DNA from: Nonlabens ponticola
Lineage (GTDB): Bacteria; Bacteroidota; Bacteroidia; Flavobacteriales; Flavobacteriaceae
Length of the DNA: 32,000 bases
Direction: 5' to 3'
Assembly (NCBI RefSeq): GCF_003966335.1
Contig: NZ_CP034549.1
Location: 1,440,001-1,472,000 of the forward strand
The position numbers and the translations under genes are program-made. The notes beneath the pieces were generated by a model. That model had not been told where the DNA came from. It saw only the letters and a list, made by a program, of their open reading frames with translations, and did no database searches. Of the stretch, positions 373-30,803 are shown piece after piece (position 1 is the first letter of the stretch; the number at the start of each line of letters is the position of its first letter).

Positions 373-1440
373 TTATCTAAAGACAGATAAATCAATATTG
401 AGCGAGAAAACGTTGCTGTACAGCGCGGCACTTTGATCGCCTATATCAGTTAATGCATAATCTACTGATATGCCCTTGTACTTAAATCCTATCCCGATAT
501 TAGGCTGGAAAGTCACGTCATCATTGCCATCGAGTTGCTGTACATTCTGGAAATTACCGACTCCGGCACGCACAAATACCAAATCTGTATAACCGTATTG
601 CAATCCTAGGGCTGGCGTGGCGCTTATGGAACCGCTGGAGAATATGTCGTTAGTCTGTATAAATCGCATGTTTAAATCGACCTCGGCGAGAAGCACATGA
701 TCATAGTGAAATACAAACTCGCGAGCAATGCCTAGTTGTAGTTTTGGTAAGGTGATTTCAGTCGTTTCTGGAAGTTCTTGATTTTGGTTTTCTACGGCAT
801 CGCTTACCGTCGCAAACTCGTCCTCATCGATGGACCACGTATTATAGGTGGTTGTAATATCTCTTACCATCGCGCCAAATTTCCATTTACCACGCTCCAA
901 TTGAACACCTAGATCAATACCAAAGCCAATTGAACTCGCAAAATCACCTATCACGCGACGTATGATCTTGACGTTACCACCATATGAAAAACCGTCCAGT
1001 TTTGATTCACGAGCATAGGATGCAGTGACAGCCCAATCTGCGGTAGAAAAGGTAGAAATACGATCATAATTAATGTTTCCTTGATCGTCGATAAGTTGTG
1101 TCGTATTCAAAATATCATCGACTGAAAATCTTATTACGGAAAATCCTATGGCACTTTGATCATCAATAGGCATAGCGTATGCACCGTAGTTGTATTGTGC
1201 GATGTTGGCAAAATAGCTTGAGTGCATCAGCGAGATTTCCTTTTCTTCCAGCTGCATGAGTCCTGCTGGATTCCAGTAACCTGCGTTGACATTGCTGGTG
1301 CTGGCAACCACGGCGTTGCTCATTCCCAATGCTGCTGCATCGACACCTATGTTCAAAAATTCATTGGAATAGGCTCTTGAGGTTTGCGCTTTCGCGAAAG
1401 CGGAACAAACTAAAATTAAAATAACACTATAGTATCTCAA
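373..1440 (-). CDS. PorV/PorQ-family outer-membrane beta-barrel protein (T9SS-associated family)
   Basis: 355-aa ORF with a signal peptide (MRYYSVILILVCSAFA|KAQ). The N-terminal stretch FLNIGVDAAALGMSNAVVASTSNVNAGYWNPAGL resembles the PorV-family signature (xxDARxxGMGxxGVA...WNPAxL). The alternating beta-strand pattern and the C-terminal aromatic residue (..LSVFR) fit an OMP. Confidence 0.6.
   Translation of the reverse strand: MRYYSVILILVCSAFAKAQTSRAYSNEFLNIGVDAAALGMSNAVVASTSNVNAGYWNPAGLMQLEEKEISLMHSSYFANIAQYNYGAYAMPIDDQSAIGFSVIRFSVDDILNTTQLIDDQGNINYDRISTFSTADWAVTASYARESKLDGFSYGGNVKIIRRVIGDFASSIGFGIDLGVQLERGKWKFGAMVRDITTTYNTWSIDEDEFATVSDAVENQNQELPETTEITLPKLQLGIAREFVFHYDHVLLAEVDLNMRFIQTNDIFSSGSISATPALGLQYGYTDLVFVRAGVGNFQNVQQLDGNDDVTFQPNIGIGFKYKGISVDYALTDIGDQSAALYSNVFSLNIDLSVFR
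1388..1401. repeat. GCTTTCGCGAAAGC palindrome, copy 1 (extended CGCTTTCGCGAAAGCGGAA, 1387-1405)
   Basis: Perfect 14-bp palindrome. It lies inside the PorV-family gene at codons 14-18 and encodes AFAKA within the signal peptide (CSAFA|KAQ). Confidence 0.95.
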
Positions 1441-1557
1441 GTAAAGGCTCGTTGTGATGGCAAATATCTAGGTTTATCAATTAATAACTATGTTTTATAC
1501 GGGATATTGCCTCTGGCAGTTGCGTTTAAAGGATGATATTTATGCATATTTGTAGAA

Positions 1558-2319: not shown

Positions 2320-2324
2320 TCTTT

Positions 2325-3151: not shown

Positions 3152-3382
3152 ATGCAATTACCCAGATTTCTCATAGGTGATAACTCACAACATCCCGAAG
3201 ATATTTTTGTGATACATCTAGATTATCCACGATTTATCATTAATCTCAAAGATGATGAGCTGGAGTTTCTCGAGGATATCGATAAGGCAGACAAGGAAGA
3301 TCTAGCCGAGGAAACTAAAAACCTAGTAGAAGAAGCCAGCAGATTCTATGATACAGAGTCTGAATTTTACGAAAATGAATGA
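3152..3382 (+). CDS. Small acidic hypothetical protein (76 aa)
   Basis: Clean ORF in an otherwise empty gap. Its stop overlaps the ATG at 3375 of the next gene by 8 nt (coupling). I recognise no family. Confidence 0.45.
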   Translation: MQLPRFLIGDNSQHPEDIFVIHLDYPRFIINLKDDELEFLEDIDKADKEDLAEETKNLVEEASRFYDTESEFYENE

Positions 3383-3944
3383 TGTAAAAGAGCTGGATTG
3401 GGATGCTACCGTTGCGCTCAATGATTGGGGAAACGACGGCGTCGATCTGTTTTTCAATATCATCACTCACAAACTATATGCGATACCTTTTTATCTGGTG
3501 TTGCTTTATTTTTTTTACCAGAAACTAGGCTGGAAGAACACATTGATTTCTTTGCTAGCTATAGCAATTTTAATAGCGGCAAGTGACCAGATTGCAAATC
3601 TTTTCAAAGATGGATTTGAGCGTTTGCGACCTTTTAGAGAACCAGCGCTGGATGGTATAATTTCTAAAGTGGGCCGCAGTGGTGGTACCTATGGCTTTTA
3701 CAGTGCACACGCCAGTAGCGCGATAGGTCTAGCGACATTTGTTTGTTTGCTTTTATGGCAATCGCAGCGAGTTTTATGCGTCGTAACCATCATTTGGGCT
3801 TTTTTAGTAGCCTACAGCCGTGTTTATTTAGGACTTCACTATCTAGGTGATGTGCTTATGGGCGGCATTATGGGCTTATTACTAGGTATATTGATTTTTA
3901 GAGGTTTTGCTTTCGCGAAAGCAAAATACAGAAAAACCAACTAG
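3375..3944 (+). CDS. PAP2-family phosphatase (undecaprenyl-diphosphatase/lipid phosphatase-like), membrane
   Basis: PAP2 tripartite motif: KDGFERLRP, YSAHAS (PSGH-like) and SRVYLGLHYLGD. The protein is multi-TM. I prefer the ATG at 3375 (MNDVKEL...) over the track start at 3348, which sits inside the upstream ORF. Confidence 0.75.
   Translation: MNDVKELDWDATVALNDWGNDGVDLFFNIITHKLYAIPFYLVLLYFFYQKLGWKNTLISLLAIAILIAASDQIANLFKDGFERLRPFREPALDGIISKVGRSGGTYGFYSAHASSAIGLATFVCLLLWQSQRVLCVVTIIWAFLVAYSRVYLGLHYLGDVLMGGIMGLLLGILIFRGFAFAKAKYRKTN
3909..3922. repeat. GCTTTCGCGAAAGC palindrome, copy 2 (perfect 22-bp palindrome TTTTGCTTTCGCGAAAGCAAAA, 3905-3926)
   Basis: It lies inside the PAP2 gene at codons 188-192 of the track ORF and encodes AFAKA, 7 residues from the C-terminus. 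Confidence 0.95.
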
Positions 3945-3956
3945 CAAATAATATGA

Positions 3957-4832
3957 TCAATTGGTCATCACCAGCTCTATAGCAAGTTCATAATCATTGC
4001 CTTTATTGAAGTTATTCTCAAGAGAAAGCCATTTCCCACCTGAATATCTACTCAAGCTAGAATTCCTGAATTGCCTATCACGTACGGCGATTTTAGGTTC
4101 GTATGAAATACCGTCCTTTCGTTTTTTACCATCGCTATCAGTATAGGTATAGGTATGCTTATTCTCATCTATGATAAGAAATTCATATACAATCATCAAT
4201 CCAGTATCTGGAAATCTAATATTCAATGAGTCCAGATCAACTTCGGTGATTTTCCTTCCCTTTTTAGCGTGACCGTAAATACGGTCGTCATGCAAGGGAA
4301 ATTGTTTCAAACTATCATTTCCAGCATAGAGTTGTATCTCAAATTTGGCATCCTTGATATCACTGCTGGTGACCAGTTTTAATTTGGAGAGGAAAGGAGT
4401 GTTGTGATAAGCAGAATCCTTGGGTATAATCATCCCAATCTTCCATGGTTTCAAACCACATGATATATAGAGACTCGATTTTCTGCTTTTAATTGCGCCG
4501 TAAGATTTGATTTCCGTGCCTTTAGGTTTCTCAATTATGACATCCTCAAGCTGTGTTAGGCTTTCTTTTAAACTGATCGTTTGATCAAGCTCGTCAGCAG
4601 CAATTTCAAGAGATTGATACCCTAAGGCACTCAATATTAGAGTATCTTTTTCTTTAATCATAATCCCAAAACGGCCGCTTGCATCGCTCGTTGTACCAGT
4701 GTTAGAATTTTTAATCCAAATATTTACTAATGGAATACCAGCACCAGTGCTATCATCTACCACCTGAAATCCTGATTGAGCCGCTAGGCTATAGGTGCAA
4801 AAGCTGATGAGAATCACAAATAAGCTCTTCAT
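3957..4832 (-). CDS. Secreted protein with N-terminal carboxypeptidase-regulatory-like (CarboxypepD_reg) domain
   Basis: Signal peptide MKSLFVILISFCTYSLAAQ. The pattern VVDDSTGAGIPLVNIWIKNSNTGTTSDASGRFGI...LSALGYQS is typical of CarbopepD_reg_2 domains. The remainder is unassigned. Confidence 0.55.
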   Translation of the reverse strand: MKSLFVILISFCTYSLAAQSGFQVVDDSTGAGIPLVNIWIKNSNTGTTSDASGRFGIMIKEKDTLILSALGYQSLEIAADELDQTISLKESLTQLEDVIIEKPKGTEIKSYGAIKSRKSSLYISCGLKPWKIGMIIPKDSAYHNTPFLSKLKLVTSSDIKDAKFEIQLYAGNDSLKQFPLHDDRIYGHAKKGRKITEVDLDSLNIRFPDTGLMIVYEFLIIDENKHTYTYTDSDGKKRKDGISYEPKIAVRDRQFRNSSLSRYSGGKWLSLENNFNKGNDYELAIELVMTN

Positions 4833-5866
4833 TAAGATTGTTTTAGAATAGCATCTGCTGCATCAAAAGCTGTTATTTCTCGCTTTAAAATCTGTTGTTC
4901 CAAATTTTTAATTCTTGAAACTACATCTGTTTTATGGTAAAAGTCAGACTTCAATCGATCCTCGATGGTTTGATGGAACCAGTAAAGTTCTTGTTGCTCT
5001 CTGCGTTTTTGAAAGTGATGGCTCTCCTTTGTTTGGCTTTCAAAATCGGTAAGATGTTCATGTATATCCTCAATTCCAGATGAATTGATAGCGCTACATG
5101 TAAATGCTCTTACTAGGAATTGATGAGATTTTACTGGCAGCATGTGCACGGCATTTTGAAACTCTCGTCTAGCCCGTTGTGCGGCTGATTCATTGTCACC
5201 ATCTGCCTTGTTGATCACGATAGCATCTGCCATTTCCATGATGCCACGCTTGATACCTTGTAAATCATCGCCGGCGCCGGCAAGTTTGAGCAGTAGAAAA
5301 AAGTCTGTCATACTGTGAACAGCGGTCTCGCTTTGACCTACACCAACTGTTTCAACTATGATAAAATCATAGCCAGCTGCCTCACATAAAATAATCGCCT
5401 CTCGAGTCTTGCGAGCCACACCACCTAATGTTGCACCGGCAGGACTAGGTCTGATAAAGGCTTTATCGCTCTTGACCAGCTCTTCCATACGGGTCTTATC
5501 GCCTAGAATACTACCACGCGATTGACTACTGGATGGATCAATCGCCAGCACGGCAACCTTTTTATCTGCAGTAATCAATTGAATTCCTAGCGCTTCAATA
5601 AATGTAGATTTACCAACGCCTGGCACGCCTGTTATTCCTAATCTAAATGATTTTCCAGAGTGAGGTAGGCTTTTTTTAAGTAACGCTTTCGCGAAAGCGG
5701 AATCGCCACCAGCAGTACTCTCAACCAAAGTAATTGCCTTGCTCAAGGCACTGATGTCGCCCTTTCTAAGATTGTAAAAAAGCAAATCCACGTCCAGATC
5801 CTTTTTAATGAATCGATGACGTGGATTGATGTGTGAGGTAGACAAATTGCGACTTTTAGGATGCAT
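4832..5866 (-). CDS. meaB: Methylmalonyl-CoA mutase-associated G-protein chaperone MeaB/ArgK (LAO/AO transport system ATPase family)
   Basis: P-loop GITGVPGVGKSTFIEALG, then AVLAIDPSS...GSILGDKTRM, VETVGVGQSE and INKADG (NKxD). Its stop TAA overlaps the downstream ATG by 1 nt (TAATG at 4830-4834). Confidence 0.85.
   Translation of the reverse strand: MHPKSRNLSTSHINPRHRFIKKDLDVDLLFYNLRKGDISALSKAITLVESTAGGDSAFAKALLKKSLPHSGKSFRLGITGVPGVGKSTFIEALGIQLITADKKVAVLAIDPSSSQSRGSILGDKTRMEELVKSDKAFIRPSPAGATLGGVARKTREAIILCEAAGYDFIIVETVGVGQSETAVHSMTDFFLLLKLAGAGDDLQGIKRGIMEMADAIVINKADGDNESAAQRARREFQNAVHMLPVKSHQFLVRAFTCSAINSSGIEDIHEHLTDFESQTKESHHFQKRREQQELYWFHQTIEDRLKSDFYHKTDVVSRIKNLEQQILKREITAFDAADAILKQS
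5685..5698. repeat. GCTTTCGCGAAAGC palindrome, copy 3 (extended CGCTTTCGCGAAAGCGGAA, 5684-5702)
   Basis: It lies inside meaB at codons 57-61 and encodes AFAKA (DSAFAKALL). Confidence 0.95.
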
Positions 5867-6341: not shown

Positions 6342-7436
6342 TCAAAAATCATCTATCGCTTTGGCCAAGTTTTTAAAATGCTTGCTTTGTAGGTTTTTGG
6401 TAAATAGACCTTTTAGCGCTCGATTGCTGAAGATCACTTTACCTGTTTGAGATTGAACGACTTCAATATATTGAGACCGGAAAAGGTCGACATACCTCAA
6501 ATAATAAAAACTTTCTCCTGCCATGATCTTTTCGTTGATACTGTCTGTATCAACGACTTTGTACTCGTGATCATACTTCTTCATTTTTTTGATCAAAAAA
6601 TCCTTGTCAACTTCGTAGACACTGCTCAGGATATTAAGTTTGATGCGCGTGTATGAAGGAATGTACAGAGTGTTTGTTTTAAGGTTTTGCAATTCTGAAG
6701 AGGCGGTATTGTCATATCTGCTTATGACAAAGTCATTTTGTATAGCATCACTTATGGCCTGTAAATAATTTTTAAGCATGCCGTAATCAAGATTGTAGTA
6801 ATAATCCTTCTTATAGACATTAGTATAAATATCTGCGATATTGAGTTTGTCTTGATTTTTATCCATCAGCCCTTCGTCGACGAGTGAGCTCTTTTTATCT
6901 TTTAATACGCTTTGGTTAATATCAGCAACGGCAAGGTTATTATCGTGCAATGCTACAGTCGCAAACGATGTTTTTGATTGAACAATCATACGTTCTTTTG
7001 CCAAAGTATATTTTTCTTTATCAAAATCTGTAAGCCTCAGTTCTTCTAGATTTTCAAGCTGTTTAGATTTATCCCAAACATAAAAATCCAATTGATGATT
7101 TGCGAAATAGCTCATGAGACCATTAGTGGTAAGTGTGTTGACATTAGGAGAAAATCTGCAAACTGAATATTTGGGCAAACTGTACTCCAATGGATCGAAT
7201 TCTGCATGATCTATGATCAAAAATGGTGATATAGACCAAACTTCTTCAATCAACGACTGAAGCTTTTGTTTTTCTAAGTAATCTGGTTTGACAAAAATCA
7301 ATGTAGTATTTGAAAGCTGCTCTACAAATGACTCTTTTAATGGAGTAATTGTGCCCTTTTCTTCAATGCCCACATTTATTTGTCCCAGGCCAGTAGCTAA
7401 ATAAAAGAATATGGCAAATTGCAGTGATCGTATCAT
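6342..7436 (-). CDS. Hypothetical secreted protein (364 aa), no recognised family
   Basis: Long uninterrupted ORF with a hydrophobic N-terminus (MIRSLQFAIFFYLATGLGQ). Asn/Lys/Asp-rich, with no motif I recognise. Confidence 0.5.
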   Translation of the reverse strand: MIRSLQFAIFFYLATGLGQINVGIEEKGTITPLKESFVEQLSNTTLIFVKPDYLEKQKLQSLIEEVWSISPFLIIDHAEFDPLEYSLPKYSVCRFSPNVNTLTTNGLMSYFANHQLDFYVWDKSKQLENLEELRLTDFDKEKYTLAKERMIVQSKTSFATVALHDNNLAVADINQSVLKDKKSSLVDEGLMDKNQDKLNIADIYTNVYKKDYYYNLDYGMLKNYLQAISDAIQNDFVISRYDNTASSELQNLKTNTLYIPSYTRIKLNILSSVYEVDKDFLIKKMKKYDHEYKVVDTDSINEKIMAGESFYYLRYVDLFRSQYIEVVQSQTGKVIFSNRALKGLFTKNLQSKHFKNLAKAIDDF

Positions 7437-7497
7437 TTATAAGTAAAAGAAGTGAAATCAAATATAAAATAATCGAAATGATGAAGTGTTACCCAAC

Positions 7498-7525
7498 AAA
7501 AAATGCTCTACTATTTGCAGAGCAT
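7498..7525 (-). terminator. Rho-independent terminator downstream of secA
   Basis: The minus strand reads ATGCTCT-gcaaatagt-AGAGCAT followed by TTTTT. That is a 7-bp stem (7503-7509 / 7519-7525), a 9-nt loop and a T-run (7498-7502). It begins 37 nt after the secA stop. Confidence 0.6.
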
Positions 7526-7538
7526 CTCTTATAATTAC

Positions 7539-7552
7539 GCTTTCGCGAAAGC
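7539..7552. repeat. GCTTTCGCGAAAGC palindrome, copy 4 (extended TTACGCTTTCGCGAAAGCTA, 7535-7554)
   Basis: Intergenic. It sits between the secA stop (7562) and the secA terminator (7498-7525). Confidence 0.95.
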
Positions 7553-7561
7553 TACATCGCA

Positions 7562-10500
7562 CTAGTATTTATCCAACACCCATTCACCTTTATTAATCAA
7601 TGGGATTGCAGCTTTGTACTTACAATCCTTTGACTCACCTGTCATGATGTTTTTGATAGTGACTTTATCGTTGCGACCTATCTTAGGCTGCTCGCGTGTA
7701 ATGGTCTCAGTCACCGGTTGACGTTGACGGCTGGCACCAGCACCTACGGCTCTTGATTGAGCTGCTCGCTCATCACTGTTTAAGACTTCATCCTTGCTAG
7801 TGGTCGTCTTTTCAGCCTTTTGTTGGCGCGCTTCCTGGATGGCCTGTGAATCTCTAGTAGGCAAATCTCCTTTAAATAAGAAACCAATTACCTCTTTATT
7901 CACCTTGTCAATCATCTCACGGAATAGCTCAAAAGCTTCAAACTTATAGATTAATAAAGGGTCTTTTTGCTCGTGAACGGCTAGCTGTACGCTTTGCTTC
8001 AATTCATCCATTTTACGCAAGTGCGTTTTCCATGAATCATCGATGATTGCTAGCGTGATGTTCTTTTCAAAATCGTTTACGAGCGTCTTTCCTTCACTTT
8101 CATAAGCATCCTTAAGGTTGGTAGAGACGTTGATGGTCTTGATACCATCAGTGAATGGAACCGCGATACGCTCATAATTGCGTTCATCATTTTCTACCAC
8201 ATTCTTAATTACTGGGAATACCTCTTGCGCGGTGCGCTCCATTTTTTCCTTGTAATGCTGGTAAGCAGCCTTGTAAACAATACCAGCAATTTGTTGATCG
8301 CTTTTAGATTTAAATTCTTCTTCGCTGATAGGACTGCTCATTGAGAAGTAGCGTATCAGTTCAAAGTCAAAGTTTTTAAAGTCTTGCGAGATTTTATTAG
8401 TCTGCGCGATATTTTCTGAAATATCATAGATCATGTTAGCAAGATCCACGGCAAGTCGATCACCGTTCAAGGCATTGAAACGACGCTTGTAAATAACTTC
8501 ACGCTGTGCGTTCATGACATCATCATATTCCAATAAGCGCTTACGTACACCAAAGGCGTTTTCCTCTACTTTTTTCTGTGCTCGCTCGATGGACTTGGAT
8601 ATCATGGAATGCTGGATCACTTCGCCTTCCTTCATTCCTAGTCTGTCCATGGTCTTGGCCATACGCTCAGAGCCGAACAATCGCATCAAGTTATCTTCAA
8701 GCGACACGTAGAATTGTGAACTTCCTGGGTCTCCTTGACGACCAGCACGACCACGCAACTGTCTGTCTACACGACGAGAGTCATGACGCTCTGTACCAAT
8801 AATGGCCAGACCACCAGCTTTTTTAACCTCGTCTGATAATTTGATGTCGGTACCACGACCTGCCATGTTGGTAGCGATGGTGATTTGTCCAGCGTTACCA
8901 GCGTCTGCAACGATCTCTGATTCTTTCTTGTGTTGTTTTGCATTCAATACGTTGTGCTCTATACCAGCACGTTGTAGTGTTCTACTCAATAGCTCAGATA
9001 TATCAACAGATGTAGTACCTATAAGAACTGGCCTTCCTTGTTCTTTAAGTCTTGTAACTTCTTCTATAACGGCACCGTATTTTTCACGCTTAGTTTTATA
9101 AACAAGATCTTGACGGTCATCACGAGCGATAGGTCTATTGGTAGGAATTTCCACAACATCAAGTTTGTAGATTTCCCAGAATTCACCAGCCTCGGTTACT
9201 GCAGTACCTGTCATACCAGACAACTTGCGATACATGCGGAAGTAATTCTGCAGCGTGATGGTCGCAAATGTCTGCGTGGCATCCTGAATTTTTACGTTTT
9301 CCTTGGCCTCAATCGCCTGGTGCAATCCATCGCTGTATCGACGACCATCCATGATACGACCTGTTTGCTCATCAACGATCATCACTTGCTCCTCGCTGGT
9401 AGTTTTAACGCCACCAGTCGCAGCGTCGCGAACTTTCTTGTCTTTGGACATGACGACATATTCTGTATCACGTTCAAATAGGGTATAGGCTTTAAGTAAT
9501 TGGTTAAGCGTGTGAATACGCTCTGACTTTACCGCAAATTCACGGAAGAGTTCTTCCTTCTTCTCAGCTTCTTCTTCCTTGCTTAATCCTTCACTCTCGA
9601 TGCGACCTATTTCTAGACCTACTTCTGGCATTACAAAAAAGTCTGGATCGTCCTCACCAGATAGGAACTCAATACCTTTATCGGTAAGCTCTACCTGATT
9701 GTTTTTCTCGTCAATGACAAAGTAAAGTTCTGCATCTACTTTAGGCATCTCACGATTATTATCCTGCATGTAAAAGTTCTCAGTCTTTTGCAGCAATTGC
9801 TTGATTCCTTCTTCACTCAAGAATTTTATGAGAGCCTTATTTTTAGGTAATCCTCTATAAACACGCAATAGCTCAAGTCCACCTTCTTTAGTGTCGCCTT
9901 CACTGATAAGTTTTTTAGCTTTAGCCAGCGTCTGTACCAGTTGCTTGCGCTGTACACTAACAATATTTTCTACGGGTCTTTTAAGTACATCAAATTCCTG
10001 ACGATCACCTTCTGGTACGGGTCCAGAGATAATCAAAGGTGTACGCGCATCATCAATCAAGACAGAGTCAATCTCATCTATGATCGCATAATTGTGCTTG
10101 CGTTGCACAAGATCCTTGGTGCTGTGCGCCATATTATCACGCAGGTAGTCAAAACCAAACTCATTATTGGTTCCGTAAGTGATATCTGCTAGATAGGCTT
10201 GCCTTCTGGAATCAGAATTAGGCTTGTGGTAATCAATACAGTCTATGGAAAGACCGTGAAATTCAAAAAGAGGTCCTATCCAGGCGCCATCACGCTTTGC
10301 CAGGTAATCATTCACGGTAACTACGTGTACACCGTTACCAGTTAAGGCATTTAAATAAACAGGCAAGGTTGCCACAAGCGTTTTACCTTCACCAGTTTGC
10401 ATCTCGGCAATTTTGCCTTTGTGCAATGCTGCACCACCTATAAGTTGTACATCATAGTGAATCATGTCCCAGGTTACTGCTTTACCAGCGGCATCCCATG

Positions 10501-10975
10501 AGTTGTGCCATATGGCGTGATCACCATCTAGTTCTACATAGTCTTTCTCGCCGCTCAATTCTCGATCACGAGCAGTTGCCGTGACTCTAATTTCTGGGTT
10601 GTGGAAAAAGCGCTTTGCTGTTTCTTTCATCACGGCAAATGCCTCTGGCATGATCTCATGCAAGACATCTTCTGCCTGCTGGTATGCCACATCTTCTAGC
10701 GCGTCGATACGTTCATAGATTTCCTCACGAGCGTCGATATCTTCTTCCTTGTCAGCATCTTCTTTAAGAGTGGATATCTGTTGTAGTGTTTCCGCTTTCG
10801 CGAAAGCTATCTTCTCTTTAAACTCTACCGTTTTATGACGCAGTTCATCAATGCTCAATGCCTCTAGTGACGGTTCAATGGCGAGTACTTGATCAACATA
10901 AGGTCGCAGCTCTGCCACATCCTTTTTTGATTTATCGCCTACAAATATTTTTAAAACGGAATCTAATAGTCCCAT
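7562..10975 (-). CDS. secA: Preprotein translocase ATPase SecA
   Basis: 1137 aa. Walker [19 protein letters not shown]-like [21 protein letters not shown], and motifs [31 protein letters not shown] and [12 protein letters not shown]. Confidence 0.97.
10794..10807. repeat. GCTTTCGCGAAAGC palindrome, copy 5 (extended TTCCGCTTTCGCGAAAGC, 10790-10807)
   Basis: It lies inside secA at codons 57-61 and encodes AFAKA (KIAFAKAET). Confidence 0.95.
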
Positions 10976-13748: not shown

Positions 13749-14774
13749 TTATACGATACCTTCTCTTATAACATCGTGAATGTGCACCACACCAGCATAA
13801 TTGCCATTTGCATCTACTGCGATAAGCTGCGATACATTAAGTTCTTCCATGAGCTCGCGTGCCTGCACGGCCATACTATCTACTGTTATCGTTTTAGGCT
13901 GGCCGCTCATGATATCTGTAGCTGTTAGACTATCGATATCCTTACCGCTGGACAGCATGCGACGCAAATCACCATCGGTAATAATGCCAACTAGTTGATT
14001 GTTTTCTACTACAGCTGTCATGCCTAGCATGTGTTCTGAAATGGTGACGATTACCTCACGCAAACTAGTCGCTGGCGATACGGCAGGTTTAGGACGTTGT
14101 TCTACTAGATCTTGAACGCGCAGATATAATTTTTTACCTAGCGCGCCACCTGGATGATAGCGTGCAAAATCCTGATCAGTAAATCCTTTGAGCTCTAATA
14201 AGCAAATAGCTAATGCATCACCAATGACAAGCTGCGCCGTCGTGCTAGTGGTGGGCGCTAGCCCATTGGGACACGCCTCTTCTTGAATAGGCGCGTGCAG
14301 GACATAATCTGCTTCTTGACCTAAGAATGATTCTCGATGACTTGTAATGGCGACAAGCTTGTTGTCAAAATTCTTGATCAGTGGCACGAGCACTTTGATC
14401 TCTGGCGTGTTTCCGCTTTTTGAGATACAGACTACCACGTCGTTTTTTTGAACGATGCCTAGATCTCCATGAATCGCATCTGCTGCATGCATGAATATGG
14501 CTGGCGTGCCCGTGCTGTTCATGGTAGCCACGATTTTCTGGGCGATGATAGCACTCTTGCCTATACCAGTAATGATGACTCTTCCTTGCGAGGAGTGTAT
14601 GTGTTGTACCGCTTTCGCGAAAGCGGAATCAATAGAATTCTCTAACTCTTTAATAGCATTTGCCTCGATGCGCACAGTGCGTCGAGCCACTTGCAAGATT
14701 TGATCTACGGTATTCAAAAAAGCCTGCGGATTTAAAGTGTTTGTGTAAAAAGAATTTAATCGTAAATTGAGCAT
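13749..14774 (-). CDS. kpsF: Arabinose-5-phosphate isomerase KpsF/GutQ family (SIS domain plus tandem CBS domains)
   Basis: GRVIITGIGKSAIIAQKIVATMNSTGTPAIFMHAADAIHGDLG (SIS domain) and a C-terminal CBS pair. I prefer Met13 of the track ORF (14774), because the 14810 start would overlap the divergent recQ start. Confidence 0.85.
   Translation of the reverse strand: MLNLRLNSFYTNTLNPQAFLNTVDQILQVARRTVRIEANAIKELENSIDSAFAKAVQHIHSSQGRVIITGIGKSAIIAQKIVATMNSTGTPAIFMHAADAIHGDLGIVQKNDVVVCISKSGNTPEIKVLVPLIKNFDNKLVAITSHRESFLGQEADYVLHAPIQEEACPNGLAPTTSTTAQLVIGDALAICLLELKGFTDQDFARYHPGGALGKKLYLRVQDLVEQRPKPAVSPATSLREVIVTISEHMLGMTAVVENNQLVGIITDGDLRRMLSSGKDIDSLTATDIMSGQPKTITVDSMAVQARELMEELNVSQLIAVDANGNYAGVVHIHDVIREGIV
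14611..14624. repeat. GCTTTCGCGAAAGC palindrome, copy 6 (extended CGCTTTCGCGAAAGCGGAA, 14610-14628)
   Basis: It lies inside kpsF and encodes AFAKA (DSAFAKAVQ). Confidence 0.95.
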
Positions 14775-14803
14775 ACAAAGATAAACAAAAAGCGAGCAGC
14801 CGT

Positions 14804-18012: not shown

Positions 18013-18340
18013 CGTCGCCTGCTTTGATCTTCAGATTACAAGATAATAGATATAAATCGATATTGTTATTCTTGGTTGGTTTCGCGTTAAGGATCGCAGC
18101 GGCATCCTTTTAATGGCTACCGTAGCCATAAAAAGATATAGCGTAGAGCCTGGCCAAGCGATGAGCGAGGAAACGCCCTTAAAATAATCCCATAGGATAA
18201 ACTGCTTATTATCAGGTGATTTATAAGTTCTCTAAATACTAGTTACGCAAACGTTGTAGTAAATGGCACGATCGTTGAAATCTACCTAGCAAGCGGAAGC
18301 CGAAAAGCTACTAGAGTAGGCAGATCTTAAACTTATAGTC

Positions 18341-18940: not shown

Positions 18941-18958
18941 AAAGCATATTAAATCAGG

Positions 18959-18986
18959 AACCCGATTCATGTAATCGGGTTTTTTT
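18959..18986 (+). terminator. Rho-independent terminator
   Basis: AACCCGATT-catgt-AATCGGGTT forms a perfect 9-bp stem and is followed by TTTTT. It lies 19 nt after the stop at 18940. Confidence 0.85.
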
Positions 18987-19027
18987 ATGCGATGATGTTA
19001 CTGTTGGCGAGCACGGTTTGTATGCTT

Positions 19028-19035
19028 TACCTTTG
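19028..19035 (+). promoter_or_regulatory. Candidate Bacteroidota -7 promoter box (TACCTTTG) for the PPIase gene
   Basis: TACCTTTG matches TAnnTTTG. A TTG lies 21 nt upstream, and the ATG (19058) lies 22 nt downstream. Confidence 0.45.
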
Positions 19036-19057
19036 CACTTTTAAAAATTGATTTGAT

Positions 19058-19990
19058 ATGAACGATGGTATTTACGCACATTTTGACACGAGTAAAGGCG
19101 AGATTCTTGTGCAATTACACTATAAACGCACACCAGGAACGGTAGGAAATTTTGTTGCCCTTGCCGAAGGTAATCTAGAGAACGACGCCAAGGCTCAAGG
19201 AACGCATTATTACGACGGTCTTAAATTTCACCGTGTGATTCCTGACTTTATGATTCAAGGTGGTGATCCACAAGGAACTGGCGCTGGTGGCCCAGGTTAC
19301 AAGTTTGATGATGAATTTCATCCAGAATTGCGTCACGACGGGCCTGGTGTCTTGAGTATGGCAAACGCTGGTCCTGGAACTAATGGATCCCAGTTTTTTA
19401 TCACGCATGTGGAGACGGCATGGCTGGATGACAAGCACACCGTTTTTGGTAAGGTGGTAGAAGGCATGGATGTCGTCAATAAGATCGAGCAAGGTGACGA
19501 GATCAAATCGGTCACCATCAAACGACAAGGCGCCGATGCCGAGGCTTACAACGCCGTGGAATCTTTCAGAAAATTTGAAGGCGCTGCAAAGCTGCGTGAA
19601 GAGCAAGCTAGAAAACAAGCTGATCAGGAACTGGACGAGATCGCTGCTGGCTTTGATAAAACCGATAGCGGTTTGCGCTACAAGATCATCAACAAGGGTG
19701 ATGGTAAAAAAGCCAATAAGGGCGATCAGGTAAGTGTGCACTATAAAGGTATGTTGCCAGATGGTAAGGTATTTGACTCTAGTTTTGAACGTAAGAAACC
19801 TATTGATTTTCAGGTAGGTGTAGGCCAGGTCATCGCTGGTTGGGATGAAGGAATCACCATGTTGCAGGTAGGCGATAAGGCGCGGTTTGTGATCCCATCG
19901 CACCTAGGTTACGGCAGTGCTGGCGCTGGTGGCGTGATACCGCCTAATGCGACGCTGGTTTTTGACGTAGAGTTAGTGGACGTTAAGTAG
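19058..19990 (+). CDS. Dual-domain peptidyl-prolyl cis-trans isomerase: N-terminal cyclophilin fused to C-terminal FKBP
   Basis: The cyclophilin part has [47 protein letters not shown] and HTVFGKV. The FKBP part has [19 protein letters not shown]...[54 protein letters not shown]. Confidence 0.9.
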
Positions 19991-20012: not shown

Positions 20013-20044
20013 AAGCCTTGGATCATTTGGTTCAAGGCTTTTTT
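20013..20044 (+). terminator. Rho-independent terminator downstream of the PPIase gene
   Basis: AAGCCTTGGATC-attt-GGTTCAAGGCTT forms a 12-bp stem including two G.U pairs and is followed by TTTT. It lies 23 nt after the stop. Confidence 0.8.
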
Positions 20045-20053: not shown

Positions 20054-20067
20054 GCTTTCGCGAAAGC
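20054..20067. repeat. GCTTTCGCGAAAGC palindrome, copy 7 (extended GTTACGCTTTCGCGAAAGCTAAC, 20049-20071)
   Basis: Intergenic. It lies 10 nt after the PPIase terminator (20013-20044) and 38 nt before the next ATG. Confidence 0.95.
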
Positions 20068-20104: not shown

Positions 20105-21196
20105 ATGAAGTTTCTAGTACAATTTTGCCGCTGTTTTGTTGGTATACTGTTCATTTTTAGTGGATTGGTAAAGCTCAATGATCCTGTAGGATTCTCGTTT
20201 AAGTTAGAAGAATACTTTAGCGCTGCGGTATTGGGTCTTGAGTTTTTGCAGCCATTTGCATTGCCGCTGGCTATATTTCTGGTGATTCTTGAAGTAGTGA
20301 TGGGTGTGATGCTTATACTAGGATTTCAGCGCAGGTTTACCGTATGGTCGCTGCTGTTGATGATCTTGTTCTTTACCTTTCTCACATTTTATTCGGCTTA
20401 CTTCAATAAGGTGACCGATTGTGGCTGTTTTGGTGATGCGATACCGCTGGTGCCATGGGAAAGTTTTGCCAAGGATGTGTTCCTACTCATCATGATTGTC
20501 ATCTTGTTCATGAACGTTTCCTTGATCAAACCATTCTTTTCAAAATTCACATCGATGATAGTTACATTATTGGTGACGATTGCATGTTTTGGATTGGCTT
20601 ATTATGTGTTGATGCATTTACCGGTGCTGGACTTTAGAGCTTTTAAAATAGGAACCAACATCGATCAAGCGATGCAGGAAGATCCTAATCGACCAGACGT
20701 GTATGGATTTGACTGGTACTATGAGGTAGATGGAGAAGAAGAAATAGTTACTACTAGCGGCTTACCACCAGAAGGAAGACCTAATTATTCTAAAGTGGAA
20801 ACACGACTACTAGAAAAAGGATATGAGCCACCTATCCACGACTTTTCTATTATGCAAGGCGATCAGGATTATACGCAAGAATATTTGAATAAGGAAAAGG
20901 TAGTATTTGTCATCATGTACAGACTGGTACAATCAGAAAGTGATGGCATGTACAAATTACCAGAGTTTATTCAAAACGCTCAAAATAATGGATACGAAGT
21001 CATCGCGCTCACAGCATCAGGCCCTGATGATATTAACGAGGCAAAAGAGAATTACAACCTAGATATAGAATTCTACACTACAGATGCCACGGCGCTTAAA
21101 ACCATGATACGTTCTAATCCTGGAATCATGGTGGTTGAAAATGGTGTGATCACACAAAAAGCGCACTGGAATGACCTGGAAGAAATTTCTCTATGA
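20105..21196 (+). CDS. DoxX/MauE-like integral membrane protein with a C-terminal thioredoxin-fold-like soluble domain
   Basis: The N-terminal part has 4-5 TM segments, with FIFSGLVKLNDPVGF and a DCGCFGD motif typical of MauE/DoxX-like proteins. The C-terminal ~170 aa are soluble and look TlpA/thioredoxin-fold-like, but I see no CxxC there. Confidence 0.55.
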   Translation: MKFLVQFCRCFVGILFIFSGLVKLNDPVGFSFKLEEYFSAAVLGLEFLQPFALPLAIFLVILEVVMGVMLILGFQRRFTVWSLLLMILFFTFLTFYSAYFNKVTDCGCFGDAIPLVPWESFAKDVFLLIMIVILFMNVSLIKPFFSKFTSMIVTLLVTIACFGLAYYVLMHLPVLDFRAFKIGTNIDQAMQEDPNRPDVYGFDWYYEVDGEEEIVTTSGLPPEGRPNYSKVETRLLEKGYEPPIHDFSIMQGDQDYTQEYLNKEKVVFVIMYRLVQSESDGMYKLPEFIQNAQNNGYEVIALTASGPDDINEAKENYNLDIEFYTTDATALKTMIRSNPGIMVVENGVITQKAHWNDLEEISL

Positions 21197-23677: not shown

Positions 23678-24526
23678 ATGAGTAAGGTTACAGACCAGCT
23701 ATATGTAGAGTACACGTTTACGGTAATGCCTGTGCAGCCTTGGGTCGATGTGCTTGCCGCGCAATTAGGTGAGCTAGGTTTTGAGAGCTTCATGGAGACT
23801 GAGACAGGACTTTTGGCTTATGTGCTGGAAGATATCGACAGCGATGACCTAGTAAAACAGTTGGACTTGTGGCAGTATGATGATGTTGAGTTAGCTTTCG
23901 CGAAAGCAAACATACCACCAACCAACTGGAATCATGAATGGGAAAAGAACTTTGAACCTATCACCGTGCAAGACCGCTGCGAGGTGCGAGCGCCATTTCA
24001 CGAGTCCAAAGGCCTGGAATATGACATCGTGATAGAGCCAAAAATGAGTTTTGGCACGGGTCACCATCAAACAACGCACATGATGATCGAGCATCTACTC
24101 GAGTTAAATCCTACTGATCAAAAGGTACTGGATATGGGTAGCGGTACTGGGGTTCTCGCCATTCTTGCAAGGTTGACAGGTGCAGCGGCGGTAGATGCGA
24201 TAGATATTGACACGTGGTGTTATGAAAATGCACTTGAAAATGTGCAGCGCAATCAAGTCGATAAGGTTGAGGTTATTCTGGGTGGTGCAGAGCAGCTTGG
24301 AGATCGCTACTATGATTTAATCATTGCAAATATCAACCGCAATATCCTACTGGCCGACATTCCAACTTATGCTGGTTGTTTGTCGAGCGGTGGCAAAATC
24401 TTGCTAAGCGGTTTTTATCTAGAAGATCTTGACCAGATAAAAGCAGCTTGCACACAGGTAGGACTAGAATACATATCGCATAGACAGCGCGATCAATGGG
24501 TGTCGCCATTGTTCATCAAAAAGTAA
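23678..24526 (+). CDS. prmA: Ribosomal protein L11 methyltransferase PrmA
   Basis: NWNHEWEKNFEPI, IEPKMSFGTGHHQTT, and the SAM motif VLDMGSGTGVLAI. Confidence 0.88.
   Translation: MSKVTDQLYVEYTFTVMPVQPWVDVLAAQLGELGFESFMETETGLLAYVLEDIDSDDLVKQLDLWQYDDVELAFAKANIPPTNWNHEWEKNFEPITVQDRCEVRAPFHESKGLEYDIVIEPKMSFGTGHHQTTHMMIEHLLELNPTDQKVLDMGSGTGVLAILARLTGAAAVDAIDIDTWCYENALENVQRNQVDKVEVILGGAEQLGDRYYDLIIANINRNILLADIPTYAGCLSSGGKILLSGFYLEDLDQIKAACTQVGLEYISHRQRDQWVSPLFIKK
23894..23907. repeat. GCTTTCGCGAAAGC palindrome, copy 8
   Basis: It lies inside prmA at codons 73-77 and encodes AFAKA (ELAFAKANI). Confidence 0.95.
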
Positions 24527-24862: not shown

Positions 24863-24865
24863 ACT

Positions 24866-28008: not shown

Positions 28009-29356
28009 TATTTCCAAAACAGAACTGGTAAAGCGCTTGGATTTGGATGAATTTGATTCCGGCAAGCGTGTGTTGCACCGCACCCATTTTGAATACTTCA
28101 ACAGGTTCTTAATTGGGTTTGCCATCATCATGATTATCGTGCTTTTCCTACCATGGACGCAAACCGTTACCGGTAATGGTTTTGTAACAACCTTGACACC
28201 AGATCAACGACCGCAAACCATACAATCACCTATTCCTGGTCGATTAGAGACATGGTTTGTTCGTGAAGGTGATCGTGTTTTCAAGGGCGATACGATCCTA
28301 CAAATAAGCGAGGTAAAAAGTGAATACTTTGATCCAGAGCTGGTCAATCGTACCGATTTACAAATTGACGCCAAAGAGCAATCCGTTGAGTCATATGATT
28401 TTAAGATTCAATCGTTGAGGCAACAAACCGTTGCACTGCAGTCAGAGTTGCAATTAAAATTAAACCAGGCAGCAAACAAACTAGAACAAGCAAAGCTCAA
28501 GGTGGTGAGCGATAGTATCGATCTAGAAGCAGCAAGAACAAATCAAACCATTGCAGAGCGTCAACTGGAACGTACCGCAACACTTGAAGATGAAGGCCTC
28601 AAATCTCAGGTAGATGTAGAACAAAAACGCTTGAAACTACAAGAGACTCAAGCTAAATTAATATCGCAACGTCAAAAATTACTGCAAAGTAAAAATGAGG
28701 TGACCAATGCTCAAATCGAGATAAGTCGCACCAGACAAGAGTATGCAGAAAAGATAGCCAAAACTAGAAGCGATTTAGGTAGCGCCCAGTCAGACCAGCT
28801 GGATGTAGCTGTTCAAGTGAGTAAACTGCAATCTGACCGTGCAAATTACAGCATGAGAAACGATTTGTATTTTATCACAGCACCACAGGATGGCTTTATC
28901 AATAAAGCCATCAAATCGGGTTTAGGCGAGACTTTTAAAGAAGGTGAGCCGCTGGTCAACATCATGCCGTCCAACTATGATCTTGCGGTAGAGACTTTTG
29001 TCGAGCCTATCGACTTGCCGTTACTCCATAAAGGAGAACACGTACGCGTACAATTTGATGGATGGCCGGCAATCGTTTTCTCTGGATGGCCCAACGCTTC
29101 AGTAGGTACTTATGGAGCAGAGATTGTTGCCGTAGAAACCTTTACGTCAAGCAACGGTAAATACCGCGTGCTGCTGGCTCCTGACAACATCGATGATGAG
29201 TCCTGGCCAGAGGCACTGCGTCCTGGCGCCGGCGCCTACACCATCGCATTACTAGAAGATGTGCCTGTTTGGTACGAGATATGGCGACAATTGAATGGTT
29301 TCCCACCTGATTATTACACACCAGAAAGCGACAGCAAGGATGATAAGAAAAAGTAG
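28001..29356 (+). CDS. HlyD-family membrane fusion (periplasmic adaptor) protein
   Basis: It has a single N-terminal TM segment, a lipoyl-like segment (SPIPGRLETWFVREGDRVFKGDTILQI), a long coiled-coil, then a beta-barrel (APQDGFINKA..GE.F.EGEPL..I). The start overlaps the ABC stop by 8 nt. Confidence 0.85.
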   Translation: MLNISKTELVKRLDLDEFDSGKRVLHRTHFEYFNRFLIGFAIIMIIVLFLPWTQTVTGNGFVTTLTPDQRPQTIQSPIPGRLETWFVREGDRVFKGDTILQISEVKSEYFDPELVNRTDLQIDAKEQSVESYDFKIQSLRQQTVALQSELQLKLNQAANKLEQAKLKVVSDSIDLEAARTNQTIAERQLERTATLEDEGLKSQVDVEQKRLKLQETQAKLISQRQKLLQSKNEVTNAQIEISRTRQEYAEKIAKTRSDLGSAQSDQLDVAVQVSKLQSDRANYSMRNDLYFITAPQDGFINKAIKSGLGETFKEGEPLVNIMPSNYDLAVETFVEPIDLPLLHKGEHVRVQFDGWPAIVFSGWPNASVGTYGAEIVAVETFTSSNGKYRVLLAPDNIDDESWPEALRPGAGAYTIALLEDVPVWYEIWRQLNGFPPDYYTPESDSKDDKKK

Positions 29357-30803
29357 CACCATACTGCTCTCGCTATGCACAATGATGACTTATGCAGTGC
29401 AGATTGATGAAGTTACGCTTTCGCGAAAGCTAACAAACCCACAAGCTACAGTGCAACCAGTGGAGGATACGGTAGTGCTAAGTTTGAGGGAATATCTGGG
29501 CTATGTCAAGCGTCATCATCCAGTAGCTTTACAGGCAGAATTGCTACTTGATGAAGGGCAAGCAAATTTACTGCAAGCGCGTGGCGGTTTTGATCCAAAA
29601 ATCGAGGTAGATTATCGTCGCAAGGATTTCAAGGACATTGAGTATTACGATGAATTGACGGGTGTTTTTAAGATTCCAACCTGGTATGGCGTCGAGTTCA
29701 AAGCAGGAGCAGAGCGTAACGAAGGTGAGTTCCTGGATCCATCGCTAACTGTGCCTGACGGTGGTTTATACAGTGCTGGTGTGCAGGTAAATCTAGGTCA
29801 AGGATTGTGGATCAATGAACGTATGGCCACTTTGAGAAAAGCCAAGTTATTCCAACAACAATCACAGGCCGATCGCGATCTTGCAGTCAATGCGGTACTT
29901 TATGATGCGTCAAATGCTTATTTTGAATGGTGGCGCGCGACACAAGAAGTGGCTTTCTTCAAATCCATACTGGCAAATGCGATACAACGCAAGCAAGCTG
30001 TTGTGGTAAGTGCTAGGCTAGGAGATAAGGCCGCGATTGATACTGTAGAAGCGGGAATTGCTGTCCAGACAAGGAGATTGAGTCTTGAAAAAGCACAAAT
30101 CCAATTGACTAAAAGACGATTGCAGGTATCCAATTTTCTATGGCTAGATGGCGTACCGGTTGAATTGCAGGATAATGTCGTACCGCAAGAGCAATTGCAA
30201 GAAGTGACCAACGATGTGCTGGCGCTAGAAGGTCAACAGCTCAATGAATTTAATGTAGAGAATCACCCAAAAATCGTATCACTCAATTTTAAGTTAGATC
30301 AACTAGATGTGGATCGACAACTCAAAGCCAATAAATTGTTGCCCAAAGTAACCGTCGATTACAACTTTATCACTCCAGACTGGAACGAACTTAATTCAAT
30401 CAATCAAAATAATTACAAAGCTGGACTCACGTTTGCCTATCCTATTTTTACTAGGAAAGAACGTGGCGATTTGCGACTTGCCAAAATCAAGATCGACGAT
30501 GCCAGATACGGCCTGCAATCTGAATCATTGATCCTGCGCAATAAAGTAATTGCTATATTCAATGAGCTAGATAGTTACCAGCGTCAAGTCATCCTAGCAG
30601 ATGAGCTTGTCAACATGGCGGAAACCATGTTGCGAGCAGAGAATCGAAAATTTGAATTGGGTGATAGCTCGCTGTTTATTATCAACTCACGAGAGGCAAA
30701 ATTGATTGATTCTCAAGTAAAAGCGTTGGAAGTTCAGGAAAAACTATTGAGCGTCAAAGCAGAACTTTTTCGTAGTCTAATGGTGTTGCCAGAAAATTTG
30801 TAG
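29340..30803 (+). CDS. TolC-family outer-membrane efflux protein
   Basis: Signal peptide MIRKSSTILLSLCTMMTYA, then LSLREYLGYVKRHHP... with two TolC-type repeat halves. I prefer the ATG at 29340 over the track start at 29295. It overlaps the HlyD stop by 17 nt. Confidence 0.8.
   Translation: MIRKSSTILLSLCTMMTYAVQIDEVTLSRKLTNPQATVQPVEDTVVLSLREYLGYVKRHHPVALQAELLLDEGQANLLQARGGFDPKIEVDYRRKDFKDIEYYDELTGVFKIPTWYGVEFKAGAERNEGEFLDPSLTVPDGGLYSAGVQVNLGQGLWINERMATLRKAKLFQQQSQADRDLAVNAVLYDASNAYFEWWRATQEVAFFKSILANAIQRKQAVVVSARLGDKAAIDTVEAGIAVQTRRLSLEKAQIQLTKRRLQVSNFLWLDGVPVELQDNVVPQEQLQEVTNDVLALEGQQLNEFNVENHPKIVSLNFKLDQLDVDRQLKANKLLPKVTVDYNFITPDWNELNSINQNNYKAGLTFAYPIFTRKERGDLRLAKIKIDDARYGLQSESLILRNKVIAIFNELDSYQRQVILADELVNMAETMLRAENRKFELGDSSLFIINSREAKLIDSQVKALEVQEKLLSVKAELFRSLMVLPENL
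29417..29430. repeat. GCTTTCGCGAAAGC palindrome, copy 9 (extended GTTACGCTTTCGCGAAAGCTAAC, 29412-29434)
   Basis: It lies inside the TolC-family gene just after the signal peptide. It is read in a different frame (LSRKL, within VTLSRKLTN). Confidence 0.95.

Follow-up and report, generated by a model that had tools for sequence, protein, structure and literature searches.

What is a perfect 14-base palindrome, GCTTTCGCGAAAGC, doing nine times over in a 32,000-nucleotide stretch of the Nonlabens ponticola genome (contig NZ_CP034549.1, positions 1,440,001 to 1,472,000 of the forward strand; here called the window), in DNA of about 41% G+C whose gene content is typical of Flavobacteriaceae? Exact search recovers all nine of the copies that an earlier note had read from the sequence, at the positions given line by line below, and its chance expectation of about 1e-4 copies per window also holds: Markov models of orders 1 to 5 predict from 1.7e-4 (order 1) through 2.5e-5 (order 3) down to 2.6e-7 copies (order 5, trained with the word masked) in 32 kb, and 100 dinucleotide-preserving shuffles of the window yield 0 copies. 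With up to three mismatches allowed, these nine sites are found again and no others, where 1.7 would be expected by chance. The core of our answer is that GCTTTCGCGAAAGC belongs to one lineage, the Dokdonia/Nonlabens clade of the Flavobacteriaceae, where it forms a hyper-abundant iterated palindrome.

This conclusion draws on two samples of very different kinds. An exact-word scan of one genome per species (185,579 species, 596 Gb) matched at least 120 stretches, and among the matches listed 83 come from Dokdonia (33), Nonlabens (21), strain BBFL7 (3) and uncultured Flavobacteriaceae (26). Many of these listed matches are 8-kb blocks with two or three copies, and every multi-copy stretch among them belongs to a low-GC genome of flavobacterial type; the 29 listed stretches from outside the Flavobacteriaceae, in other phyla and two other Bacteroidota, carry one copy each, as chance predicts in 596 Gb. 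The other sample was drawn without reference to the word and consists of 80 metagenome contigs fetched with the RecQ protein encoded in the window. All eight contigs whose RecQ shares 81% identity or more with that of the window carry the word, with 18 copies in 108 kb, whereas none of the 72 with a RecQ of 73% identity or less does, with 0 copies in 1.03 Mb, and the boundary of the clade is therefore sharp. Altogether, 140 kb of in-clade DNA chosen irrespective of the word hold 27 copies, where 1e-4 to 5e-4 would be expected. The density in the window and the non-redundant in-clade contigs is about one copy per 5 kb (range 4-6 kb), an over-representation of 1e4-1e5-fold, and by extrapolation a 3.3-Mb genome would hold about 600 copies. 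The word occurs irrespective of gene orientation and in coding and non-coding DNA alike, with about 68% of copies in coding sequence and about 23% between genes, the latter being roughly twice what we take to be the non-coding share of such genomes. Independent assemblies of Dokdonia, Nonlabens and related Flavobacteriaceae show the word in hyper-abundance. Full-text searches (most subscription journals lay outside their coverage) found no paper with the 14-mer or with such a word in Flavobacteriaceae, and nothing relevant on its 10-mer core, on palindromes in Dokdonia, on highly iterated palindromes in Flavobacteria, on the methylomes of the clade or on uptake sequences in Bacteroidetes. As the earlier note supposed, GCTTTCGCGAAAGC appears to be previously undescribed as an iterated word.

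Some observations were made at the edges of this distribution. Two contigs labelled as uncultured Aquimarina (L071 and L110) carry the word with typical flanks, and in L110 a single gene has two copies within 1 kb. This means either that the clade extends beyond Dokdonia and Nonlabens or that the bins carry wrong labels. Single copies in contigs of Leeuwenhoekiella (L030 and L112), Altibacter (L107) and Flavobacterium sp. (L101) may be due to chance. A scan of the outgroup contigs for similar iterated words found nothing convincing; one candidate, GCAAATATTGCA in L179, L181 and L182, was set aside with only two true copies. The outgroup metagenome contig L199 contains, at about 18570-19890, a dense repeat array with spacings of about 210-450 bp and motifs including ACCCCAGCGGGGTC and AACCCAGAGGGT, which is unrelated to the word.

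Seven of the nine copies in the window lie within open reading frames (ORFs), and two (7539 and 20054) are intergenic. The genes concerned are unrelated, as had been claimed: Pfam assigns six of the word-bearing ORFs to six different proteins (PAP2, MeaB, SecA, SIS+CBS or KpsF-like, PrmA, and the TolC-like OEP), and the seventh, at 373-1440, encodes a signal peptide and has no Pfam match. In six of the seven coding copies the word stands in the same frame and reads Ala-Phe-Ala-Lys-Ala (AFAKA), the seventh reads L-S-R-K, and the copies are positioned at or beyond the margins of the Pfam domains. The copies and their flanks are as follows.

1388..1401, copy 1: in ORF 373-1440, minus strand, in the signal-peptide region, reading ..LVCS-AFAKA-QTS..
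3909..3922, copy 2: in the PAP2 ORF 3348-3944, plus strand, in the C-terminal tail, reading AFAKA and starting right after the Pfam domain (residues 70-187)
5685..5698, copy 3: in the MeaB GTPase ORF 4832-5866, minus strand, residues 57-61, AFAKA
7539..7552, copy 4: intergenic, 10 bp 3' of the secA stop codon, with ..attac before the core and tac.. after it
10794..10807, copy 5: in the SecA ORF 7562-10975, minus strand, residues 57-61, AFAKA; specific to the lineage of the window
14611..14624, copy 6: in the SIS+CBS (KpsF-like) ORF 13749-14810, minus strand, residues 63-67, AFAKA; the best-documented orthologous site
20054..20067, copy 7: intergenic, between ORF 19058-19990 (plus strand) and ORF 20105-21196 (plus strand), with gggttac before the core and taac after it
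23894..23907, copy 8: in the PrmA ORF 23678-24526, plus strand, residues 73-77, AFAKA
29417..29430, copy 9: in the OEP (TolC-like) ORF 29295-30803, plus strand, directly after the predicted signal peptide, in another frame, L-S-R-K
1363..29455, strand-polar flanks: about 18-25 nt on either side of every copy

How did the word come to stand at these places? Wherever sites with and without it can be aligned (the KpsF-like gene, the signal-peptide ORF 373-1440, SecA, and the contig pair L110/L071), they are of equal length. The KpsF-like site is the best documented. All eight in-clade metagenome contigs read x-AFAKA-V there, with the word intact at 14/14 and flanks 71-79% identical, and more than 35 orthologues from outside the clade have D-[D/E]-F-A-x-A-V (GAT GAT TTT GCn nAn GCn GT) at the same position and length; given these outgroup codons, the copy amounts to three to six substitutions at an already similar site. 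The changes include the synonymous TTT to TTC and GCA to GCG, contrary to the AT-rich codon habit, together with Asp to Ala, and the flanks were recoded as well, from VELIYNSKGR to VLHIHHSQGR downstream and from IANLENLVDN to ITDLVDGIDS upstream. Other sites agree. Out-of-clade orthologues of copy 1 read ..IAFAQST.. with no indel, and one member of the L110/L071 pair has the word where the other has CTTCTTGCAAAAGC, again with no indel. At the SecA site of copy 5, the closest relative, contig L121 (89% amino acid identity), has GCTCAAGCGAAAGC, with three mismatches (11/14) and the reading AQAKA, and the more distant in-clade contig L128 has six mismatches (8/14), neither with an indel; the series 8/14, 11/14, 14/14 looks like a stepwise approach to the word. 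Since the finished SecA copy is limited to the lineage of the window, the gain of copies went on after the clade had diversified. The aligned sites thus show the word as one created by point substitutions at similar, change-tolerant positions, and not inserted; it is typically met at the ends of signal peptides, at domain margins, in linkers and in spacers.

The same comparisons indicate the level at which the pressure acts. The RecQ peptide C-L-S-R-K-R is invariant, and L-S-R-K is encoded by TTA AGT AGA AAA in 71 of the 72 outgroup contigs. In all nine in-clade sequences the serine has moved from the AGY class of the outgroup to TCN, and the neighbouring residues mostly use CTN (Leu), CGM (Arg) and AAG (Lys), so that the direction of the shift is towards CTT TCG CGA AAG. 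In L121 and L128 the site reads cCTTTCGCGAAAGCG, which is 13/14 of the word, the first base being blocked by the Cys codon; in the window's own RecQ (residues 242-247, 15527-15544) it has drifted to TTG TCT CGC AAG. Conversely, the peptide AFAKA occurs 16 times in 42,000 amino acids of in-clade protein, each time encoded by the word, and 0 times in 356,000 amino acids outside the clade; its codons are always identical, including the rare GCG and TTC. From the codon switching in RecQ, and from the fact that AFAKA is always word-encoded, it follows that the pressure is on the DNA and not on the peptide. Copies in long ORFs use the frames in the ratio 72 (AFAKA) : 21 (LSRK) : 23 (FRES), and many of the AFAKA copies are located at signal-peptide ends.

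Once formed, the word stays letter-perfect in these alignments as the DNA around it diverges. At orthologous positions within the clade the core is nearly always 14/14 and the surrounding 400 bp are 69-83% identical; a neutral 14-mer at 72% identity would be expected to survive in about 1% of pairs. Identical words are found in orthologues of the KpsF-like site (nine sequences), PrmA (three), MeaB (two) and the signal-peptide ORF (two). Copy 3 is kept 14/14 in L121 (flanks 74% identical) and copy 8 in both L124 and L127 (69-70%). Contig L015 has the word at 5484, the orthologous position of copy 1, in DNA 68% identical around it, and again at 7975, in a C-terminal peptide matching that of copy 2 (..FGVF-AFAKA-RYG against ..FRGF-AFAKA-KYR in the window), where the DNA alignment stops short of the site; no alignable orthologue of copy 4 was found among the in-clade loci. 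The flanks are neither hyper-conserved nor hypermutable, their identity between orthologous pairs being 74-78% in every bin from -90 to -1. The earlier suggestion that the DNA word is actively maintained is therefore borne out by its conservation at 14/14 beside flanks of 70-80% identity, by its origin through substitution and by its restriction to one clade. The companion claim, that the family is all-or-none, is right for the window, with no copies at one to three mismatches, and does not strictly hold in the wider clade, where 811 kb of DNA contain, beside about 174 exact copies, 19 variants with one mismatch and 15 with two. A number of these near-words have typical flanks and look like recently damaged copies; no compensatory two-mismatch variants were found among them.

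The copies also keep their distance from one another. Neighbouring copies in 48 loci are separated by 70 gaps of 0.86 to 9.7 kb, the shortest being 856 bp; no gap is below 500 bp, where 9.5 would be expected, and two are below 1 kb, where 18 would be expected. A gap distribution as extreme arose in 0 of 5000 random placements, and the window alone gives a gap coefficient of variation of 0.41 (P = 0.008). Such mutual avoidance speaks against a purely neutral Poisson process and suggests a benefit, or a drive, that saturates at one copy per fragment of 1-2 kb. Uptake sequences follow this saturating logic, and so, equally, would Chi-like self markers or sites that direct repair. The gaps, extending over unrelated genes, and the lack of indels also bear out the earlier description of the word as neither tandem, nor CRISPR-like, nor transposon-borne.

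Beyond the core, the flanks of about 170 copies from the clade show that each copy is part of a strand-polar motif some 50 bp long. The usual form of the word is CGCTTTCGCGAAAGCG: on each strand about 80% of copies have C at position -1, and G stands at +1, 114 of the 170 copies (67%) having the full 16-mer, and spacer copies tend to a TTAC-core-GTAA context. Further out, C is depleted between -4 and about -18, with a weaker effect reaching -25 (1-10%, against a background of 19%), G is raised at -18 to -15 and at -6, and T is raised at -14 to -9, -7, -4 and -3. The 5' flank of each strand is accordingly C-poor and G/T-rich, and by symmetry the 3' flank is G-poor and A/C-rich; TGTG, GTGG, GGTG, TGGT and TTGT are enriched, and CC-containing k-mers nearly vanish. 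GC skew reaches +0.3 to +0.56 within 25 nt of the core and is zero beyond 30 nt. Spacer copies show this skew to the same degree as copies in each of the three frames, whether the sense or the antisense side is read; the skew is missing at chance copies of the word in other phyla and at TCGCGA sites outside it. A longer hairpin or inverted repeat in the flanks was considered and rejected, the complementarity of the arms being that of shuffled partners beyond position -4; as DNA, the core folds at -2.1 kcal/mol and the 22-mer at -7.3 kcal/mol (z = -2.4). The perfect 14-bp unit of the earlier note thus stands as a core, within a conserved unit that is larger than 14 bp (C at -1, G at +1, polar flank). 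The features that tell most about the word are its asymmetric flanks, its frame bias and its even spacing; together with the near-words of the clade, they are additions to that first description.

At the two intergenic copies we noted by eye a hairpin with a T-run, at 7497-7528 (ATGCTCT..AGAGCAT+TTTTT, minus strand, after secA) and at 20014-20044 (AGCCTTG..CAAGGCT+TTTTTT, after ORF 19058-19990 and just upstream of copy 7). A scan of 7400-7620, around copy 4, for terminators and promoters found nothing, and terminator scans were negative at both intergenic copies; the hairpins seen by eye were missed there because their loops of more than 8 nt exceed the limit of the tool. With a separate hairpin and T-run at each intergenic copy, the word adjoins likely terminators and yet is distinct from them.

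Matches to viral contigs are mostly single chance hits or single conserved sites, and several low-GC viral contigs have two or three copies with host-like neighbours, C at -1 and G at +1. These contigs are as follows.

L289, 1-12060
L205, L314 and L317
L236, L240, L254 and L280
L253
L286 and L307

L289 has three copies in 12 kb, and its genes include those for a portal protein, a major head protein, an HNH endonuclease and a protein resembling a head maturation protease. Its low G+C and host-like density of words led us to take it as a phage of the word-bearing clade, and on that reading, if the host has been placed rightly, phages of the clade share the word.

Hyper-abundant words are known from few lineages, among them the DNA uptake sequence (DUS) of Neisseriaceae, the uptake signal sequence (USS) of Pasteurellaceae and the highly iterated palindrome HIP1 of cyanobacteria, and it is against these that GCTTTCGCGAAAGC has to be set. 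HIP1 (GCGATCGC) resembles it in being a perfect palindrome with a CG-containing centre, hyper-abundant in the coding and non-coding DNA of one lineage. HIP1 is also conserved at orthologous positions, which argues for selection (PMC5861425), and frequently extends outward from its core (PMC4390886). Two marks of HIP-type words, genome-wide over-representation and conservation of sites beyond that of the neighbouring sequence, are thus found in the flavobacterial word as well; sequence and phylum place it outside HIP1 proper. It is 14-16 bp long and not 8 bp, has another sequence, belongs to another phylum (Bacteroidota), and at about one copy per 4-6 kb is some 5-20 times less dense. A strand-polar flank is not mentioned for HIP1 in the portions of those papers available, and HIP1 has cognate GATC and CGATCG methyltransferases, whereas none is known for our word. 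The function of HIP1 is itself still debated, between a methyltransferase-linked, a nucleoid, and a transformation or Chi-like role (PMC4390886, PMC5861425). Two preprints report that HIP1 raises transformation efficiency in a methylation-dependent manner, possibly through uptake and a Chi-like effect, and that it co-varies with Type IV secretion system proteins that their authors link to DNA uptake (bioRxiv 10.1101/2024.09.10.611283, 10.64898/2026.06.24.733823).

The uptake sequences resemble the word in mode of origin. DUS in Neisseria and USS in Pasteurellaceae are likewise lineage-specific dialects with hundreds to thousands of copies that arise by substitution at tolerant genic sites, show reading-frame bias and enrichment of the encoded peptides in the proteome (PMC2817400), are relatively evenly distributed (PMC7811141), and have motifs extending beyond the core. 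This signature, of substitution in genes, frame bias, peptide enrichment and even spacing, is the one we find. However, uptake sequences are asymmetric 9-12-mers with abundant graded near-matches, whereas the present word is a palindrome with few, and they occur in bacteria of proven natural competence with a known receptor (ComP for DUS). Chi, at about one copy per 5 kb in E. coli, has a density like that of the word, is clade-specific, acts as a self marker against degradation by RecBCD/AddAB, and would benefit phages too; it is also 5-8 nt long, asymmetric, read as single-stranded DNA (ssDNA), oriented with replication and modestly over-represented, where our word is a 14-bp palindrome over-represented 1e4-1e5-fold. 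A further likeness lies in the GT-rich context on the strand ending 3' at the site; RecA prefers TGG/GT-rich ssDNA (PMC3763553). With the protein-binding sites parS, NBS and SBS the word has palindromy in common, and neither its copy number (about one per 5 kb wherever sampled) nor its exactness fits; gaps of 0.86-9.7 kb across unrelated genes do not fit CRISPR or tandem repeats either. In its population-genetic signature, then, the word resembles both a HIP-type palindrome and an uptake sequence. By sequence, taxon, symmetry or length it is not HIP1, DUS, USS or Chi, and it differs from all four in its long exact core, its scarce near-matches, its on/off phylogenetic boundary and its strand-polar flank.

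What might such a word do? The roles that the earlier note listed (an uptake-like signal, a site for a dimeric protein, a conversion or repair signal, a methylation word) remain the right candidates, and the one we favour, tentatively and short of calling it probable, is that the word would serve as a self-DNA tag in DNA exchange or recombinational processing. A symmetric (dimeric), highly specific protein limited to the clade would read it on duplex DNA; recognition of the duplex is indicated by the invariance of all 14 positions, loop positions included, by the lack of compensatory variants and by the weak hairpin. The word would then work as a functional analogue of DUS/USS, HIP1 or Chi, and a drive or selection with diminishing returns per fragment of 1-2 kb would yield both its accumulation and its even spacing. 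Flank polarity, for its part, suggests opening or cutting of DNA at the word, after which both strands ending 3' at it would be GT-rich, and TGG/GT-rich ssDNA is what RecA prefers (PMC3763553). In its fullest form, which we put forward as possible but doubtful, the proposal would make the word the core of a new 50-bp strand-polar element of Bacteroidota, at which a clade-specific protein opens or cuts the duplex and delivers GT-rich, 3'-ending strands to the recombination machinery: a self tag at once uptake-like and Chi-like, which recodes conserved proteins and is copied by the phages of the clade.

Several considerations weigh against a self tag of this kind. Its function is argued by analogy, and we know of no report of natural competence in the Dokdonia/Nonlabens clade, nor did a full-text literature search for competence in the clade find any. 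Known uptake sequences and Chi are short and asymmetric, and to our knowledge a perfect palindrome of 14-22 bp is without precedent for either. Near-words are rare, with about one one-mismatch variant per nine exact copies, and one-off variants are common in USS. They are common in HIP1 as well (PMC4390886). Such scarcity is more in keeping with purifying selection on each site, or with restoration of exact matches, than with a graded uptake drive, and the copies in phages are not obviously predicted by uptake drive. Finally, the flank pattern is position-specific, with C tolerated at -8 and -14, and could be the mere extended footprint of a protein, unrelated to RecA.

Two of the alternatives deserve weighing at length, and we consider each of them unlikely on present evidence. 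In one, an orphan methyltransferase, with or without a partner nickase, would read the palindrome or its CGCG/TCGCGA centre, and the site would serve strand discrimination in mismatch repair or be propagated and restored by biased short-patch repair, as proposed for HIP1, for which the methyltransferases DmtA and DmtC and a repair hypothesis offer a precedent (PMC4390886). The perfect palindrome and its centre suit this account, restoration of mutated copies would fit the scarcity of near-words, the multi-nucleotide codon shifts do head towards the word, and a need for one site every few kb would give even spacing; repeated strand-specific resynthesis from a nick could, in principle, even leave a polar flank. 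Yet TCGCGA and CGCG outside the word are about as frequent as base composition predicts, which leaves no sign of a separate pressure on the short core, and a purely neutral repair bias predicts Poisson spacing and not repulsion. Moreover, a specificity of 14-16 bp would be unusual for a methyltransferase, and many of the flank changes are transversions to G/C, for which deamination alone is insufficient. A restriction target was also considered and rejected: host DNA has far more copies of the word than expected and a phage contig has it too, TCGCGA elsewhere is near expectation, and neither restriction avoidance of TCGCGA or CGCG nor enrichment of half-sites was seen. Also unlikely, in our judgement, is a site of chromosome architecture bound by an abundant dimeric nucleoid, segregation or condensin-loading protein, with the footprint of about 50 bp reflecting wrapping or bending. 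A palindromic site with position-specific flank preferences to about -18, regular spacing, and occurrence in coding and non-coding DNA regardless of gene orientation are what such a protein would call for, and a part in nucleoid organisation has been suggested for HIP1 (PMC5861425). The numbers speak differently: parS, NBS, SBS and matS are known in tens of copies, regionally placed, and the sites of nucleoid proteins are degenerate, whereas here perhaps 600 copies are letter-perfect. Half-sites are not enriched, the TTTC/GAAA half-sites stand 2 bp closer than in parS or NBS in our own alignment, and phage copies have no obvious explanation on this account.

The remaining explanations are much weaker. 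That a miniature mobile element, whether a miniature inverted-repeat transposable element (MITE), one of the repetitive extragenic palindromic (REP)/RAYT type or an in-frame element like the Rickettsia palindromic elements, spread by insertion is very improbable, even though the word is a dispersed identical palindrome, its intergenic copies are about twice the expected share, and those copies have the longer palindrome TTAC..GTAA. REP elements, bacterial interspersed mosaic elements (BIME) and Rickettsia palindromic elements are likewise short dispersed palindromes, some tolerated in genes, but they are inserted with a change of length and are imperfect and variable, whereas the word replaces bases one for one and is invariant. 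No site compared shows a change of length (the KpsF-like gene with its more than 35 outgroups, ORF 373-1440, SecA, L110/L071), there are no target-site duplications or terminal repeats, and the flanks are neither homologous nor complementary and share composition only; although 14 is not divisible by 3, the reading frames are unbroken, and random insertion does not predict repulsive spacing. We give just as little credence to a role at the level of RNA or peptide, as a hairpin terminator or attenuator or through selection for AFAKA. The 22-mer does fold at the energy given above, and AFAKA does suit the signal-peptide cleavage regions in which many copies occur, but copies stand in all three frames and in spacers, the AFAKA codons are fixed even where they are the rare GCG and TTC, and the core hairpin is weak, with invariant loop bases and no compensatory changes; an Rfam scan of the window found no family overlapping any copy, and the terminator scans were negative at both intergenic copies. 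As for an assembly, vector or linker artefact, a possibility that the earlier note had itself raised, nothing favours it beyond the oddity of a perfect repeat, and we dismiss it as vanishingly improbable: the word is present in many independent assemblies, spanning isolate genomes (including the complete chromosome CP138998.1), metagenome-assembled genomes and metagenome contigs of many projects, and its copies lie at orthologous positions, in frame within intact genes.

Elsewhere in the window, Rfam places two RNAs above the gathering score, Flavo-1 at 18079-18159 on the plus strand (53.2 bits) and the cis-regulatory DUF805b at 18290-18322 on the plus strand (39.9 bits), both upstream of ORF 18341-18940 and unrelated to the word. 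The GC skew of the window lies below zero between about 4 and 14 kb and above zero between 14 and 32 kb. The switch, near 14.8 kb, coincides with a flip in gene orientation at the divergent, overlapping starts of the KpsF-like gene and recQ (14804-14810), and since there is no spacer at this point it looks linked to the coding strand and not to a replication origin.

Regardless of which function proves right, the word is an independent example, in another phylum, of a hyper-abundant genomic word, and bears on long-standing questions: whether such words originate by selection or by molecular drive, and what HIP1 does. Its properties are clean, with a long exact core, an on/off boundary between close relatives, recoding of conserved proteins, strong repulsion between copies and a polar flank, and the strand polarity of that flank points to a directional DNA transaction. 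Because the boundary of the clade is sharp, the gene responsible should be findable by phylogenetic profiling, and cultured strains of Dokdonia and Nonlabens make the hypotheses set out here directly testable. The word could be used as a taxonomic signature for binning and is a possible marker for phage-host prediction, and, if it behaves like HIP1, it may aid the genetic transformation of these marine flavobacteria.

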